A program made the translations under genes and the position numbers. DNA of 36,948 bases, taken from a virus. Lineage: Duplodnaviria; Heunggongvirae; Uroviricota; Caudoviricetes. Where the stretch lies: IMG/VR virus record IMGVR_UViG_2778261353_000005, one strand, 5' to 3'. The notes beneath the pieces were generated by a model. The model did no database searches. It was given only the letters and a program-made list of their open reading frames with translations, and had not been told where the DNA came from. This document shows positions 1 through 36,948 of the stretch, piece by piece (within the stretch, counting starts at the first letter, position 1; each line of letters starts with the position of its first letter).

Positions 1-996
1 TTAACGAACCAGCCAGACCAGCATCAGGATAATCGCGACTAACAGTATCCACAGCGCGGGACGCGTTGCCATATTTTGCAACGTGTCCATCATCGGTGGA
101 AAAGGATTAAGCAGCGGTTGCATATCACGCGGATCAATCCCTTTAACCCGCCGTTGATAAAGCTGATTAAGAATATCCTCGGCCTGGGCAGAAGAAAGCG
201 ATGATTGCGCAGAAAGGCCATATTTTTGCTGGATATATGCCGATAACGCCGCCAGTTCACTGGCATCTAAAGGTTGTTTTAGCGCCATCTGTAGTGATTC
301 CAGCGTCGGCGTATTTTGCTGGCTTAGCGTCTGACGCGCCTGTAGCCAGGTCACCAGATGGTTAAACAGTTTCGCTGGAATTAACTCGCCATCTTTCACC
401 CCGGAAAGTTCCAGCATCGATTGCCAGATCTGTTTGCTGGGTTCCCCCGTTGCCGCCGCAAGTTTGGTCACCAGCTGTTTTAGCGCATTGTGCTCCGCCG
501 GTAATAAAGGACGGTCGGTCGCCTCGCGCTGCTGCGGTTGCGGAATAACCATCTTCCCTTCCTGCAACAGGGTGAGAATGGTTTTTAATTGCTCCGGTGA
601 GAGCTGATTCAGCGGCGTCTGACCAAAGTTATGACGGATATAATCCGTGACCGCCTGACGATTATTCCCCAGACGTAAATACTCCCCTAATTGCGCTAAA
701 AGCTGGCGGGCAGAATGGCTTTTTTGCGCGGCCAGCAGACGTTGCGCCAGATTATGCTCAGCGGCAGGGAAGTGACGCGAAAGCAGCGGTGAATCTCCCG
801 ACAGACCAATATCGTGCCTGATACCCGCCCACAGTTCTGCTCTTTGCTGTTGCGTCAGTGAGGTCACTTTCGTCATTAAGCTTTCCAGCGAAGTACGTTG
901 CTGACTGGATAAAGGCTGATTGCCCGCGCCAGACGGCAGGTTATCTCCCTGACCTGGTGGTTGCCCAGGAGGAGGGCCGGAAATAGGTTGTATCAT
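1..996 (-). CDS. flk: Flagellar regulator Flk (chromosomal, C-terminal membrane anchor)
   Basis: 331-aa ORF; N-terminus MIQPISGPPPGQPPGQ, Q/L-rich body and C-terminal hydrophobic anchor match my recollection of E. coli Flk; not search-confirmed. Confidence 0.7.
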   Translation of the reverse strand: MIQPISGPPPGQPPGQGDNLPSGAGNQPLSSQQRTSLESLMTKVTSLTQQQRAELWAGIRHDIGLSGDSPLLSRHFPAAEHNLAQRLLAAQKSHSARQLLAQLGEYLRLGNNRQAVTDYIRHNFGQTPLNQLSPEQLKTILTLLQEGKMVIPQPQQREATDRPLLPAEHNALKQLVTKLAAATGEPSKQIWQSMLELSGVKDGELIPAKLFNHLVTWLQARQTLSQQNTPTLESLQMALKQPLDASELAALSAYIQQKYGLSAQSSLSSAQAEDILNQLYQRRVKGIDPRDMQPLLNPFPPMMDTLQNMATRPALWILLVAIILMLVWLVR

Positions 997-1192
997 TACG
1001 TATCCTTATACCTGAAATCTTCGCAAGTATGCCTGGCCGCGAGATTATGGCACACTTGTCCGGTTAACTCTCGTCTCATACAGGTAACACAAACGTGAAA
1101 ATCCTTGTTGATGAAAAAAATGATGATTTAATTTATTGATATAAAAGGATTTATATCAGCACGTGTCCACGTAGTGACCACATTTTCGAGTT

Positions 1193-1236
1193 ACAGATAA
1201 CACAAAGCCCGTTTTCACGGGCTTTGTGTTATCTGT
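1193..1236. repeat. 18-bp perfect inverted repeat with 8-nt loop, between flk promoter region and the upstream operon
   Basis: acagataacacaaagccc / gggctttgtgttatctgt arms read directly; no flanking U-tract on either strand. Confidence 0.6.
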
Positions 1237-1263
1237 GATTGTGGCTAAGCCACATGATTTATG

Positions 1264-2157
1264 CTATTTCCAGTTACAAGCAGCTTGAAGTGGTTTTAGC
1301 GCGTTTGACAGGCCGTTTAAATTGAAAGTTGCACTTACAGGGCTCTCATTATAAGGAGTTATTTTTGTATACATTTTGTTTGAGTTGGCTAGTTTTCGGA
1401 TGAAATCAATGTCATTACCTTTATAAAAAACAGCCTTTGTATCTGTAGATACTAGCCAGTTTCGCTCAACTGCTTTCTGTTTATCAAGACGATAAAGCAT
1501 GCTGGTTTGTTCAAGGCCTAAATATACATCCCAACTAAGAAATACTTCGGTTTTCTTTTCTCGGCAAGCTATAAACAGAGTGGGAGTAACCGCTTCTCCA
1601 AATGGAGTTCTGATATAATCATCACTTTCTAACGATAAAATTACATTTTTCGAATCATCAATTGGCGATGTAGTAATGGATGTGTGCCATTTTCCTACAT
1701 CTGTGGCTTTCTCTAATTTTGATTCAGCTTGAACAGCTTTATCCTGTGGGAATAGTTTATCGTAGCAGTTTAGTCTGGCTTCTTTATCATTTTCTGCTCG
1801 GCATTTAGATATCTCAGAAAGATTTGGTTGCTGAGCCTCTGTTGTTACTGGCTTTTCCGTTTTAGATTTTGAGTTTACAGATGGAGTAAATGTTGGAGAA
1901 AAAAAACGATCATAACAAGATAAACGTCTGTCATCATCTTTCTCATCAGGGCATTGATCTCTGCTTTCGAATTTTTCAGCAACTTTCGTTCGAGTCGGTT
2001 GTATTGACTTATCGTAACAAGAAAGTCTGTCTTTATTATTTTCTATTGCTCGGCACTGGAGTACTGCATTGAAGTTATTATGTTCAGTTGCTGCGTGAAC
2101 AGGCAGTACACTAATTGATATAAATGATGCACCTATAGAAAAAATTATATTTTTCAT
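1264..2157 (-). CDS. Secreted protein with three Cys-containing repeats (C-x7-9-RLxCYD) and a ~150-aa C-terminal domain; function unknown
   Basis: 297-aa ORF; signal-peptide-like N-terminus ending VHA; repeats around RLSCYDK, RLSCYDR, RLNCYDK; AT-rich codon usage. Confidence 0.7.
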   Translation of the reverse strand: MKNIIFSIGASFISISVLPVHAATEHNNFNAVLQCRAIENNKDRLSCYDKSIQPTRTKVAEKFESRDQCPDEKDDDRRLSCYDRFFSPTFTPSVNSKSKTEKPVTTEAQQPNLSEISKCRAENDKEARLNCYDKLFPQDKAVQAESKLEKATDVGKWHTSITTSPIDDSKNVILSLESDDYIRTPFGEAVTPTLFIACREKKTEVFLSWDVYLGLEQTSMLYRLDKQKAVERNWLVSTDTKAVFYKGNDIDFIRKLANSNKMYTKITPYNESPVSATFNLNGLSNALKPLQAACNWK

Positions 2158-2161
2158 TTTG

Positions 2162-2494
2162 TTATCCTTTTGGTTTAGTAAGAAATACTAAAATTCCGAT
2201 AATGATATCGCCAATAACCCATAAACTTCCAATGGTAATTAAACCTAAGCCTGTACCAATAACTGCACCGGCTTTTTCGGCATCGGATGTAGCATTATTT
2301 ATTATTTCACTAGTGCCTCCCAGTCCAACTAAAAGCGTATAGATCATAAAAATATTAAATAATATAAATATCCACTTAATGAGCTTTCCAAAAAATGAAC
2401 GCTTAAGTTTTTTTATTTGTTTACCGCAAGCAGGGCAATACAATGCTGAATCGCTCACCTCTTTCTGGCATTCAGGACATTTGATTAATGCCAT
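2162..2494 (-). CDS. Zinc-ribbon (CPxC...CPxCG) membrane protein, likely co-transcribed with 1264..2157
   Basis: 110-aa ORF; N-terminal CPECQ-x11-CPACG then hydrophobic helices; stop 4 nt before downstream gene start. Confidence 0.65.
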   Translation of the reverse strand: MALIKCPECQKEVSDSALYCPACGKQIKKLKRSFFGKLIKWIFILFNIFMIYTLLVGLGGTSEIINNATSDAEKAGAVIGTGLGLITIGSLWVIGDIIIGILVFLTKPKG

Positions 2495-2755
2495 GTAATC
2501 CGCCTCCTTTGGATCAATACGAGTTGATATTTGTTACAAAACATTTTGATTTTATCAGATTTTTTTTTATTGATAAGTGTCAATTGATTAGCTGGTATAG
2601 AGTGAGACATATAGAAGGGCAGATCTGTATCAGTAGTGATGCAAAAATCCCACAGTTTCATGGAATTTTTGCATTTAGAGCCGTGAGATAGGGTGCCTTA
2701 TCGACCTTACCCTGGCAACCGATTGACGGGGGATTACTCCCCCGTCGCGGTTTCC

Positions 2756-2896
2756 TTACTGCTTACACTGTAAGAACGCCGCAAACTCCGCTCCCCAGAA
2801 ACTCATCCGTATTTCGCACAGCGAACCGTGCAACATCCAGATGATGAGGATTACCGTCACGCAGAACGTGATGGCTGTAAGCGATTTTTGCGACAT
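2756..2896 (-). CDS. Hok/Gef-family type I toxin-like small membrane peptide (46 aa)
   Basis: Hand-translated (below ORF-track size cut-off): MSQKSLTAITFCVTVILIIWMLHGSLCEIRMSFWGAEFAAFLQCKQ; AAGGAG 8 nt upstream; TM helix then SLCEIR...AAFLxCK as in Hok proteins; GC hairpin at about 2725..2746. Confidence 0.55.
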   Translation of the reverse strand: MSQKSLTAITFCVTVILIIWMLHGSLCEIRMSFWGAEFAAFLQCKQ

Positions 2897-3086
2897 AGCA
2901 CTTGCTCCTTTTCCGGAGAGGCGCTAACCTTTCACTTGCTTAGGGTAGACGGTTAGGGCCTCGGTTAAACAAAAGTGTTTTCCGGGGCCTTTCCACATCT
3001 GGCCTTCGGGTATTCCCTCCGACCATCAGCCGAAAGGCACCCGCGCGTAATCTATCGCTTTTTTGTTACTCCGGCAATTCTGCTTG

Positions 3087-3347
3087 TTAATTCTGAGGTA
3101 AAGGCAAACTCATCTGATTGTTTCCCCTGTGTGAAGCTGGTAGCTCATGCCACGGGATACCTTCTGAAGAGTGAACGCCGGAGGCGTGTTTCGATGTGAA
3201 TTTATGGAAAGCTTCCAGTGTTGAGAAGCATACGCCGCATTCCAGATTGTTACACTGGTAATACTTTTGCCGCACGGTGTTTGAATCATTTTCCGGACGA
3301 CTTGTGCGGATACGGGCAGATGCGCCACAAAGCGGACAACGGAACAT
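3087..3347 (-). CDS. ogr: Ogr/Delta-family zinc-finger late transcription activator
   Basis: 86 aa; MFRCPLCG...YYQCNNLECG gives C-x2-C-x22-C-x4-C as in P2 Ogr. Confidence 0.85.
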   Translation of the reverse strand: MFRCPLCGASARIRTSRPENDSNTVRQKYYQCNNLECGVCFSTLEAFHKFTSKHASGVHSSEGIPWHELPASHRGNNQMSLPLPQN

Positions 3348-3538
3348 AGCGACCTCCCTTAACGTGGTGTTGCCGCTATTCTAGATTGTACGATCCCTAA
3401 TTCCAACTAACAGCTCGCTCTGTGCGAAGAGTGAAAATTGAACTTTCAATAGTTGTTGAACTTCCATACATCCAATGTGAAAATTCATACGTTCATAATA
3501 GTTAAAATTTAAAATATTGTATATCAGGTGAATAAAGC

Positions 3539-4561
3539 ATGGGAAGAGATATAACGCTGTACCCTAAAAAAGCAACTAGAAACGAACTTAAAAATTACCT
3601 TGAAAATTTAGGTTTTAAAAGGTGTAAACATTTGTGGGAATGGCCCCAAGGAACGTTGAATTACTCTTGGTTTGATGATACGGACTTCAAATCTACAGAT
3701 GGAGTTTCGGCTGATATATATCCTGTTTCAAATGACGAATTACACATATCTGGTAATAAATGGGCATTGCATGTGCGTAATTTATATAGCGCTAGTTGGC
3801 ATGATGTAAAAATGCTTAATGATGTTCTAAAAGGCGCAAGGAGTCTTTTTGGTGGAACACTTATAGGTGATTATGGGAAAAATAGGTACGCTCCTCTATG
3901 GAAGGATTCTAGTAGTCCGATCAGTCGTGGCATTTCTTCAATATTTAATCATGTCCATCATGAGATTTCCGCTGTTAAACATGCCTTACCTGAACCTTCT
4001 ATTAAATTAAACCTACCGGAAGATGGCGGTTTATCCGAATACTTTGATTACATGCAATGTATGGATCCCAGTAGAGTTATATATAATGGATTAGTACCTT
4101 TTGCGGTTGCTATGTTTGAATACTTTTTCTCTAGAGCTTTTCAAATACTTATAAAGTACGATCCTTTCGCAATAGCAAAAAGAACATCGTATAAGCAAAA
4201 AGTTGATTTTGATATTCTGCTTGAGATAGAGAAAGGAAATATTTCAATAGAAAGTGTTATTGCAAGAAATTACACTTTTCAAAACTTAACCCACCTAAAC
4301 AAAGCATATAAAGAGTGGCTGGATATAGATGTGAGAGCGATTCTTTATAAGAAAAAAAGAATTGGAAAATCAGTTGATTTTCTTGAGAATCGAATTTCTG
4401 AAATCATACAATATAGACATGGGATAGTTCATCACTTTGAGTTGGATAGGACCTTAAATCGGGATGGATATATTCATATATTAGATGCGATAGAAAAAAG
4501 CATAATTGAATTTATCCATTACATAGAAGGCAAATACAAATTTAAATTAAATGCGTATTAA
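3539..4561 (+). CDS. AT-rich accessory (moron) gene, function unknown; possible HEPN-like C-terminal Rx4H motif
   Basis: 340-aa ORF of clearly lower GC than flanks, opposite strand to D and ogr; C-terminal ...ENRISEIIQYRHGIVHH... Confidence 0.7.
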   Translation: MGRDITLYPKKATRNELKNYLENLGFKRCKHLWEWPQGTLNYSWFDDTDFKSTDGVSADIYPVSNDELHISGNKWALHVRNLYSASWHDVKMLNDVLKGARSLFGGTLIGDYGKNRYAPLWKDSSSPISRGISSIFNHVHHEISAVKHALPEPSIKLNLPEDGGLSEYFDYMQCMDPSRVIYNGLVPFAVAMFEYFFSRAFQILIKYDPFAIAKRTSYKQKVDFDILLEIEKGNISIESVIARNYTFQNLTHLNKAYKEWLDIDVRAILYKKKRIGKSVDFLENRISEIIQYRHGIVHHFELDRTLNRDGYIHILDAIEKSIIEFIHYIEGKYKFKLNAY

Positions 4562-35847: not shown

Positions 35848-35943
35848 GGCCAGAAAACTGGTTAGACCTGCTTTTTGTCTGGTCTGATTATTGCTGGAAA
35901 GAGGCTGGAGAAATTGTAGAGCGGTTCATTGGAGGGCTTCGTA

Positions 35944-36948
35944 ATGTCGATTAAGAAGCTCGAAGATGGTCGTTATTTGCTGGACATCAGGCCGAACGGA
36001 CGCAAGGGAAAGCGCGTGCGTAAGGTATTTGACAAAAAATCGGTAGCGGTGGCCACTGAACGCTACATCATGGCGAACGCTGAAAAGCGGGAATATATAC
36101 AGGGCTACCGTGATCGTCGAACGCTAAATGATTTGCTTGAGTTGTGGTGGATGTATCACGGCCAGCACAGGCGTAAGGCGGAAGAAGACCGAAAACAACT
36201 GCGCAACATAATCAATGAGCTTGGCGCTGATATGCAGGCTGTGGATCTTGATAAGCTGAAAATTATCGCGTGGCGTTCTCAAAAGATAGCTGATGGATTG
36301 AAACCGTCATCTGCTAACAGGTACATGAATCGGTTATCCGGAATGTTTACCGTGCTGAAAAAAATAGGTCTTTGGGATGCAGAACATCCAGTAAGGGGAA
36401 TTTCTATTCTTTATGTATCTCCACGAGAAATGGCGTTCCTGTCACAGAAGGAAGTGGCGCTATTGCTCGATACACTGGAGGGCGACTACTGGCGTGTTGC
36501 GCTTTTGTGTTTAAGCACAGGGGCGCGCTGGAGTGAAGCTTGTAAGCTTCGTGGTGAACAGATAGTTCATAACCGTGTAACGTTTCTTGAAACCAAAAAT
36601 GGCCGGAAGAGAACAGTGCCAATTTCGCAGGCAGTTTGTGAGGCGATCAAAACCAGAGAAACAGGCGGCTTGTTTGAGGTGAAGTACCGGGAATTCTGCC
36701 TGGCGCTGAAAAGAGTTAAGCCCGATTTACCAAAAGGCCAGGCTGCACATGTGCTGCGGCATACGTTCGCCAGCCATTTTGTGATGAACGGAGGAAACAT
36801 TATTGCGCTTCAGAAGATTCTTGGTCACGCAACCATTCAGCAAACAATGGCATATGCGCATTTTGCACCGGATTACCTGCAGGATGCGGTGGCCCTTAAT
36901 CCGCTGAAAGGTGGCGTAAGTGTCCACGCAGTGTCCACGGGGGATTAA
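35944..36948 (+). CDS. int: Tyrosine integrase (P2 Int family), complete
   Basis: Start MSIKKLEDGRY; LCLSTGARWSEA, NRVTF, RTVPIS, HVLRHTFASHF, GGNII-LQ-ILGH, MAYAHFAP-YLQDA match P2 Int. Confidence 0.9.
   Translation: MSIKKLEDGRYLLDIRPNGRKGKRVRKVFDKKSVAVATERYIMANAEKREYIQGYRDRRTLNDLLELWWMYHGQHRRKAEEDRKQLRNIINELGADMQAVDLDKLKIIAWRSQKIADGLKPSSANRYMNRLSGMFTVLKKIGLWDAEHPVRGISILYVSPREMAFLSQKEVALLLDTLEGDYWRVALLCLSTGARWSEACKLRGEQIVHNRVTFLETKNGRKRTVPISQAVCEAIKTRETGGLFEVKYREFCLALKRVKPDLPKGQAAHVLRHTFASHFVMNGGNIIALQKILGHATIQQTMAYAHFAPDYLQDAVALNPLKGGVSVHAVSTGD

Follow-up and report, generated by a model that had tools for sequence, protein, structure and literature searches.

An AT-rich gene pair next to flk as a cargo cassette of a ΦSM/P88-type P2-like prophage, with a possible role in phage exclusion

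The 36,948-nucleotide stretch of DNA analysed here (the window; IMG/VR virus record IMGVR_UViG_2778261353_000005, Caudoviricetes) has the host gene flk at one end and, next to it, two AT-rich genes, one for an exported protein with three Cys motifs and the other for a zinc-ribbon membrane protein. This arrangement raises the question of whether the pair is a chromosomal island that adjoins a prophage or a part of the prophage itself, and of what its products might do. An earlier reading of the sequence alone, referred to below as the original prediction, placed both genes immediately outside the prophage, did not recognise their family, and proposed a membrane sensor with a periplasmic partner. 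The pair is almost certainly a cargo cassette (moron) of a P2-like prophage of the ΦSM/P88 type, and it may serve the lysogen as an envelope module for phage exclusion.

Position of the gene pair in the prophage

The pair and the features that fix its position in the window are as follows.

1264..2157, minus strand: gene for an exported VasI/TagO-family protein of 297 amino acids (aa), from the open reading frame (ORF) and the Pfam VasI match
2162..2494, minus strand: gene for a predicted zinc-ribbon inner-membrane protein of 110 aa with two transmembrane (TM) segments, from the Zn_Ribbon_1 match and the hydrophobic segments
1..996, minus strand: flk, host gene, 331 aa, from the ORF call and the flk annotation in identical loci
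1098..1117: att core (attR junction), AAAATCCTTGTTGATGAAAA, at the 5' end of pdxB, from the K-12 empty site and the A8 junction
1118..1190: conserved phage attP arm, from the match to phage Chuche beside its integrase gene
1191..2682, minus strand: cargo cassette of 1,492 bp, ~36% GC, in a slot between the attP arm and hok/ogr, from the break in homology to Chuche
35929..36948, plus strand: prophage integrase at the far end of the window, from the ORF; attL lies beyond the window, the order in strain A8 being int - attL - pdxB

As judged by comparison with the flk-pdxB region of Escherichia coli K-12, the window is identical to the unoccupied site from flk past the pdxB start codon to ...GATGAAAA (position 1117) and diverges beyond this point. 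In strain A8, which carries an identical prophage, the integrase-side junction has the same 20 bp, followed by intact pdxB, and these 20 bp have a single exact match in the whole window (1098-1117). The 17-bp attP of ΦSM, ATCCTTGTTGATGAAAA, falls within the core at window positions 1101-1117. This attP was found experimentally for ΦSM of Citrobacter rodentium by Magaziner et al. (PMC6456863), who also describe lysogenisation of E. coli K-12 by ΦSM at the 5' end of pdxB. Given an att core at 1098-1117, both genes lie inside the prophage, between ogr/hok and attR. The boundary call of the original prediction is thus corrected: the supposed island by flk is in fact the cargo slot at the att end of a prophage of the ΦSM/P88 type.

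At this junction, the original start of pdxB, GTG at 1095, runs into phage DNA and meets a stop after 14 codons (VKILVDEKNDDLIY, then the stop; region 1095-1140). In strain A8, pdxB receives a new in-frame TTG start from the phage, at the integrase end and beyond the window, as described for ΦSM.

The limits of the cassette were defined using the isolated phage Chuche, in which the sequence corresponding to window 1098-1190 (95.7% identity) directly adjoins the integrase gene. Homology to Chuche ends at 1190 and restarts at 2683 (2683-3383, comprising hok and ogr), with none between. The contiguous gene order in Chuche is cox - C - int - attP - (DNA methyltransferase, Com) - hok - ogr - D. Since Chuche matches both flanks but not the middle, the pair fills a replaceable slot of 1,492 bp. 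The GC content of 1264-2494 is 35.7%, as compared with 53.4% for the remainder of the prophage, and the two ORFs, both on the minus strand, are separated by 4 nt. Two elements of the original prediction were borne out, namely a closely spaced, co-directional, AT-rich gene pair and its horizontal acquisition, in this case as mobile prophage cargo.

Strong Shine-Dalgarno sequences precede both genes, that of the 110-aa gene being AAAGGAGG. Two putative expression signals flank the pair.

1196..1237, minus strand: hairpin with an 18-bp perfect stem, putative operon terminator 3' of the stop codon of the VasI-like gene, from reading of the sequence
2549..2576, minus strand: sigma-70-like promoter candidate, TTATCA-16-TAAAAT with extended TG, from a consensus scan

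The hairpin, CAGATAACACAAAGCCCG-TTTTCA-CGGGCTTTGTGTTATCTG, has no T-run and was hence missed by the consensus scan.

The record NC_049343.1 ('Escherichia phage 500465-2'), which is 99.9% identical to window 1118-3090 and shares with the window the ORF between ogr and gpD, was considered as proof of packaging and dropped. Since flk, yfcJ and fabB, all host genes, are part of this record, it represents an over-extended prophage prediction and not a packaged genome.

Distribution and variation of the cassette

The original prediction had suggested a presence/absence comparison across E. coli, and this comparison identified the pair as accessory and not core. It was found in 240 of 5426 complete E. 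coli genomes (~4%), in 237 of them by a single match over at least 80% of the pair, and the hok-ogr end of the phage is present in 1179 genomes of the same set. All contexts opened show the VasI-like gene in the last position of a P2-like prophage, following ogr. These prophages occupy five different chromosomal sites, and the hosts include E. coli, Klebsiella, Raoultella, Dickeya and Salmonella.

E. coli: flk/pdxB; tamB/ytfP
Klebsiella: yccJ/wrbA; fieF/pfkA
Other hosts: Dickeya, beside pflB; Salmonella; Raoultella
Plasmids: ogr/gpD remnant on plasmids of enterotoxigenic E. coli

The cassette also occurs in the phage records PhiR44_2, Xuanwuvirus P884B11 and Klebsiella phage 3LV2017.

The content of the slot was surveyed in 80 viral contigs with a near-identical ogr. 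The pair was present in 17, and elsewhere the slot held a YafO toxin, a DNA methylase, a small Cys-rich secreted protein or a zinc-ribbon/TM2 protein. At one E. coli locus (L003), an additional gene for a RES-domain protein lies beside the pair in the same slot. A second E. coli variant of the cassette (L019:5001-6126; also L070 and L089) combines a two-motif VasI-like gene with a gene on the opposite strand for an unrelated zinc-ribbon/TM2 protein, which has a zinc ribbon at its N-terminus and a TM2 domain (PF05154). This zinc-ribbon/TM2 gene was also found without a VasI-like gene, and the VasI-like gene of Salmonella stands alone. What the cassettes share, given the variant cassette and the lone gene in Salmonella, is the VasI-like gene, with the small membrane protein as an optional addition.

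Two unrelated temperate phages, Brucella phage BiPBO1 (L190:2629-4046), where the gap between the two genes is 9 bp, and Klebsiella phage ST11-VIM1phi8.1 (L188:2513-3929), have a short VasI-family gene (167-201 aa) directly after the repressor gene and in the same orientation. Only the Brucella protein retains a Cys hairpin. The VasI fold is a recurrent cargo of temperate phages, not just of P2-like ones. In Photobacterium phosphoreum (L014:7001-8513), a single-motif VasI-family gene lies outside any type VI secretion system (T6SS) cluster or prophage and adjoins an LprI (lysozyme-inhibitor-like) gene, and the family is therefore broader than the description 'T6SS-associated' implies.

The exported VasI/TagO-family protein

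The 297-aa protein has an N-terminus of the Sec type, MKNIIFSIGASFISISVLPVHA/A (...SVLPVHA/A), as judged by eye. The motif C-x8-RLxCYD is present three times, at residues 35-49, 69-83 and 119-133, with spacings of 34 and 50 aa. The signal peptide and the triple motif of the original prediction were thus confirmed, but the regular repeat of ~40 aa was not. When the protein was shuffled, only 1 of 200,000 shuffles yielded even one full motif.

The family, previously not recognised, could be assigned. Pfam VasI (PF11319) gave 89.6 bits against a gathering score of 26.5, in three stretches, the best of which aligned residues 118-296 with positions 1-184 of the model, and Pfam also gave a weak match to IalB. 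The protein is named 'TagO' by PGAP and belongs to phrog_1848 of PHROGs (function unknown), the neighbouring 110-aa protein belongs to phrog_6586, and a protein 99% identical to it is encoded by ORF1 of ΦSM.

In the AlphaFold2 model there are three helix-turn-helix hairpins with a predicted local distance difference test (pLDDT) score of 75-85, each bracketed by paired Cys residues (C35/C47, C69/C81 and C119/C131) and connected by low-confidence linkers. They are followed by a beta-sandwich with pLDDT >90. This C-terminal domain (residues ~153-297, with C198 and C294) is predicted to have the IalB/VasI fold, and the comparison with IalB is in agreement with this prediction. In the family alignment, one, two or three hairpin motifs, corresponding to proteins of ~210, 250 and 297 aa, precede the conserved domain, in which the Cys pair (C198, C294) is invariant. 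The Cys motifs are accordingly modelled as helical hairpins of the disulphide type in a protein predicted to be exported to the periplasm. A search of the Protein Data Bank (PDB) with the family profile gave nothing meaningful, the best match being a TIM21 fusion at E 0.074.

Among intact variants, the ratio of non-synonymous to synonymous substitution rates (dN/dS) is 0.08-0.17 for both genes (0.16-0.17 for the 110-aa gene), and hence both are real genes kept by purifying selection. One lineage departs from this pattern at the following site.

1899..1906, minus strand: run of eight A on the plus strand (T8 in the coding strand), inside the VasI-like gene just past the second motif, from alignment with locus L005

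A 1-nt deletion in the T8 run splits the gene in a lineage at 91.9% identity. All 11 plasmid copies in PLSDB are 91.9-92.0% identical, and the ten that are annotated all show a split coding sequence. The deletion could reflect simple decay or a slippage-prone switch.

The zinc-ribbon membrane protein

The 110-aa protein begins with CPEC-x10-CPAC, matches Pfam Zn_Ribbon_1 (PF13240) at 31.2 bits (cut-off 25), and has two hydrophobic segments at residues ~38-58 and 78-104, in agreement with the zinc-ribbon/TM protein originally described. Among 32 family members, C6, C20 and C23 are invariant and C9 is nearly so. Its PHROGs family, phrog_6586, is tightly conserved (mean column identity 73%) and has a C-terminal TRPK motif. 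From the sequence, the protein is predicted to have a C4 zinc ribbon at its N-terminus, on the cytoplasmic side, and two TM helices joined by a periplasmic loop of ~14 residues.

The zinc-ribbon family is widespread in Proteobacteria and mostly stand-alone, with the VasI-like gene absent within 5 kb in 27 of 32 species-representative loci. Stand-alone examples are the chromosomal orthologue in Pantoea, located between cueR and copA, and that in Haemophilus, located between uvrB and a dehydrogenase gene. Together with the 27 stand-alone loci, these rule out the zinc-ribbon protein as an obligate partner or sensor. An ORF upstream of a zinc-ribbon homologue in Succinatimonas gave a weak match to the VasI profile (E 5.6e-5) and none in Pfam, and was not counted as a further, independent co-occurrence.

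In two Pantoea genomes, the integrase end of a P2-like prophage abuts the zinc-ribbon orthologue (L025:5001-6846 and L134:5149-6795). Aberrant excision at a Pantoea-type site would put the host zinc-ribbon gene into the ogr-attP slot, and this is a plausible route of capture.

The arrangement put forward originally, a chromosomal island beside the prophage that encodes a membrane sensor and its periplasmic partner, would explain the tight, operon-like spacing of the genes and the differing cellular locations of the products. It is hardly tenable: the pair lies within the att-bounded prophage and moves with it, which refutes the proposed location; no sensor domain is present in the membrane protein, which has only ~14 residues in its periplasmic loop and whose family is stand-alone at 27 of the 32 loci; and there are VasI-like genes on their own or accompanied by a different protein, of the zinc-ribbon/TM2 type, encoded on the opposite strand.

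Proposed function of the cassette

The function considered most probable, at a probability of roughly 0.4, is that of an envelope module for phage exclusion that is expressed in the lysogen. The resident prophage would express the cassette as a lysogenic-conversion function in the cell envelope, with the periplasmic VasI-fold protein as the active component. This protein would hinder incoming phages in crossing the periplasm, resulting in superinfection exclusion or defence, and may also hinder other contractile injection devices. Any role of the small membrane protein would be that of a helper or an anchor, and not an obligatory one.

That the cassette is expressed in the lysogen is made plausible by the VasI-family genes that directly follow the repressor gene in BiPBO1 and ST11-VIM1phi8.1. 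This position, directly downstream of the repressor, is classical for lysogen-expressed exclusion genes. An exclusion role is further suggested by the slot, since this moron slot between ogr and attP elsewhere contains toxins and a methylase, and by the anti-phage activity of SDIC4B. SDIC4B of Serratia is a 157-aa protein with a signal peptide, has a VasI-like fold according to its authors, and is sufficient by itself to give E. coli a 10-200-fold protection against several phages (bioRxiv 10.1101/2024.01.28.577318). In Supplementary file 3 of that work, the sequence of pGM248 (labelled SDIC3) contains only a 157-aa ORF, and pGM249 has this ORF as the second gene of its SDIC4 insert. The plasmid table thus seems to have offset rows, and the 157-aa ORF was taken as SDIC4B, consistent with its IalB-like predicted fold.

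SDIC4B (PF27224) is a small protein that, like the 297-aa protein, is predicted to be Sec-exported and is encoded on DNA of the mobile/defence type. The two appear to have the same order of secondary-structure elements, 7β-α-2β-α, with one Cys residue in strand three and another where the C-terminal helix ends. They differ in that SDIC4B has no Cys-hairpin repeats and its anti-phage activity has been measured.

Several results weigh against an exclusion role. Searches for homology between the 297-aa protein and SDIC4B gave E 56 by BLASTP, E 0.36 for profile against sequence and a probability of ~1% for profile against profile, the last with an alignment of the SDIC4B family built for the purpose. 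As all three routes are non-significant, only resemblance at the level of the fold remains. SDIC4A, the partner of SDIC4B and a secreted 150-aa protein with a signal peptide, is unlike the zinc-ribbon two-TM protein encoded upstream in the cassette, and no WYL/BrxR gene was found in the cassette neighbourhood, unlike the BrxR association of SDIC4. The IalB/VasI fold itself has no known molecular activity, and PADLOC gave no matches for the two proteins, the hok-like protein or the 340-aa neighbour described below. The consensus promoter scan gave no more matches than shuffled sequences, and was not used as evidence of expression. The VasI-like gene is frameshifted in ~7 of 40 E. coli carriers from an even sample and in 11 of the 11 plasmid copies in PLSDB, and loss of the gene is hence tolerated. 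Finally, most genes of the zinc-ribbon family are chromosomal and stand alone, so that joint action of the two proteins need not be assumed.

A more specific form of the proposal is doubtful. In this form, P2-like phages of Enterobacterales would carry a dedicated envelope barrier, in which one to three disulphide-stapled hairpin modules determine how far a periplasmic protein with the VasI/IalB fold can reach, with a zinc-ribbon two-TM protein as an optional anchor at the inner membrane, and this barrier would block contractile injection tips, whether of superinfecting myophage tails or of T6SS spikes. If correct, it would provide the first molecular function for the VasI/TagO fold, and the T6SS accessory protein, Serratia SDIC4 and the prophage exclusion gene would share one mechanism.

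Neighbouring elements

The genes that follow the cassette belong to the conserved end of the phage and to a second variable interval.

2756..2896, minus strand: hok-like type I toxin gene, from HOK_GEF (30.1 bits) and phrog_251
2883..3042, minus strand: region of a sok-like antitoxin RNA, from Rfam RF01794 (51.9 bits, gathering score 59, E 6.6e-10)
3087..3347, minus strand: ogr, P2 late-gene activator, from Ogr_Delta (52.4 bits)
3539..4561, plus strand: AT-rich ORF of 340 aa, in a second cargo slot between ogr and gpD

The hok-like neighbour noted in the original prediction is therefore real. A tblastn match to the hok-like protein was found right after ogr in 75 of the 80 related viral contigs, in six of them at only 48% identity. 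The hok-like/sok-like type I toxin-antitoxin module is a near-constant trait of the phage lineage and not a part of the cassette.

The product of the 340-aa ORF showed a weak match to RiboL-PSP-HEPN (22.5 bits), which is under the gathering score of 28.4, and no match in PADLOC, PHROG or NCBIfam. The ogr-gpD slot is empty in strain C9 (L002) and holds a gene for an alpha/beta hydrolase in another P2-like prophage (L019). The 340-aa ORF is a candidate abortive-infection or defence gene.

Comparison with known systems

The closest known system is ΦSM, which shares its cassette with the prophage in the window. The two agree at 96.4% of the nucleotides over 1118-3090 and at 99% of the residues of the VasI-like protein, the cassette lies at the att end in both, and both have the same 17-bp attP in pdxB. 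Unlike ΦSM, the prophage in the window has the extra 340-aa gene between ogr and gpD. Table 2 of the ΦSM paper lists ORF1 as predicted cargo, 'T6SS VasI family protein - virulence' (PMC6456863). The pair is thus already known from RefSeq annotation, from Pfam and PHROGs families, and as published ΦSM cargo. No published account was found of the exact boundaries of the cassette, of the expansion from one to three hairpins, of the recurring but optional pairing with a zinc-ribbon two-TM protein, or of a phage clade below the T6SS equivalog threshold, and searches of the literature for an ogr-att hotspot of P2-like phages gave nothing relevant.

The VasI/TagO proteins of T6SS clusters (Vibrio cholerae VCA0118 and E. 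coli O157 ECs_0222) share with the 297-aa protein the C-x8-RLxCYD hairpin, the beta-sandwich, the Cys pair and a C-terminal C-x-W. ECs_0222, from T6SS-2 of O157, is 26% identical to it (E 5e-11) over the last Cys motif and the whole beta-domain. However, the phage protein has three hairpin motifs, as compared with one in T6SS VasI, and its gene lies in a prophage cargo slot, whereas that of O157 VasI lies between clpV and tssA.

This relationship would be explained if the phage supplied a genuine T6SS accessory protein, which would modulate the T6SS of the host and give the lysogen a gain in competition or virulence. The Pfam VasI score of 89.6 bits, the identity to O157 VasI, the PGAP name TagO and the 'virulence' class given to ΦSM ORF1 all fit this explanation, but it is unlikely. 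Against the equivalog model TIGR03360 of NCBIfam, with a cut-off of 124.2, the 297-aa protein scored 75.9 bits and other phage-borne members 35-57 bits, as compared with 257.4 for the in-cluster VasI of O157. No T6SS genes were found in any of the eight contexts of the VasI-like gene that were examined, and the phage moves among hosts whatever their T6SS content. The role of VasI/TagO in the T6SS itself is also listed as unknown in a 2026 review. The cassette is probably not a T6SS component.

A related explanation, slightly less probable again, is that the periplasmic protein protects against incoming T6SS attack or other insults to the envelope by serving as a decoy or shield, in the manner of a non-cognate immunity factor. 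It is suggested by a periplasmic protein from a family otherwise tied to T6SS loci and by a prophage-borne gene, as prophage cargo often helps the host. P2 tails and the T6SS are, moreover, both contractile injection systems. However, no similarity to known immunity families was found.

IalB of Bartonella (invasion-associated locus B; PDB 3DTD; PF06776) is 14-18% identical to the 297-aa protein and has no Cys-hairpin region, and its gene is alphaproteobacterial and chromosomal. The common fold would allow the 297-aa protein to be a virulence or host-interaction factor in the manner of IalB. This is very improbable: the two have the fold in common at an identity of no more than 14-18%, IalB itself has no known molecular role, and the carriers, which range from commensal, environmental and animal E. 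coli to Klebsiella and the plant pathogen Dickeya, share no host niche.

DrpB (YedR; NF038392/PF28000), a non-essential divisome protein of E. coli, resembles the 110-aa protein in its two-TM topology, in a membrane part of similar length and in a (Y/L)TRP(R/K) motif at the C-terminus, but has no zinc ribbon. With hhalign, the 110-aa family aligned with K-12 DrpB over 77 columns at a probability of 16% and E 0.0015, and the score with NF038392 was 22.1 bits against a cut-off of 50. The match is too weak for a claim of homology to DrpB.

The similarity to DrpB over the whole membrane part, including the TRPK/TRPR motif, together with precomputed PF28000 matches on some members of the zinc-ribbon family, could point to a module by which both proteins tune division, peptidoglycan or lysis timing for the phage, and in Pasteurella phage Pmp14 a VasI-family gene is found among tail genes. 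This explanation is about as improbable as a shield against the T6SS. The DrpB match is under every threshold, and since P2 and many close relatives have no cassette and the slot holds unrelated cargo, the cassette is dispensable for the phage cycle.

The classical lysogenic-conversion genes of P2 include old, tin and fun/Z, and the known P2 exclusion genes have tested phenotypes. The cassette resembles these and other att-proximal morons in being low-GC, self-contained cargo in a variable slot that is swappable between conserved flanks. It differs in the slot used (ogr-attP), in its unrelated proteins and in its predicted action in the envelope. The phage-borne clade offers a convenient handle on the VasI/IalB fold, as it is compact, self-contained and under purifying selection; it has a natural knock-out lineage, and ΦSM already lysogenises E. 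coli K-12. If the VasI-like gene is an exclusion or defence gene, the ogr-attP slot would join the known P2 defence hotspots, and the widespread VasI family would gain a phenotype.

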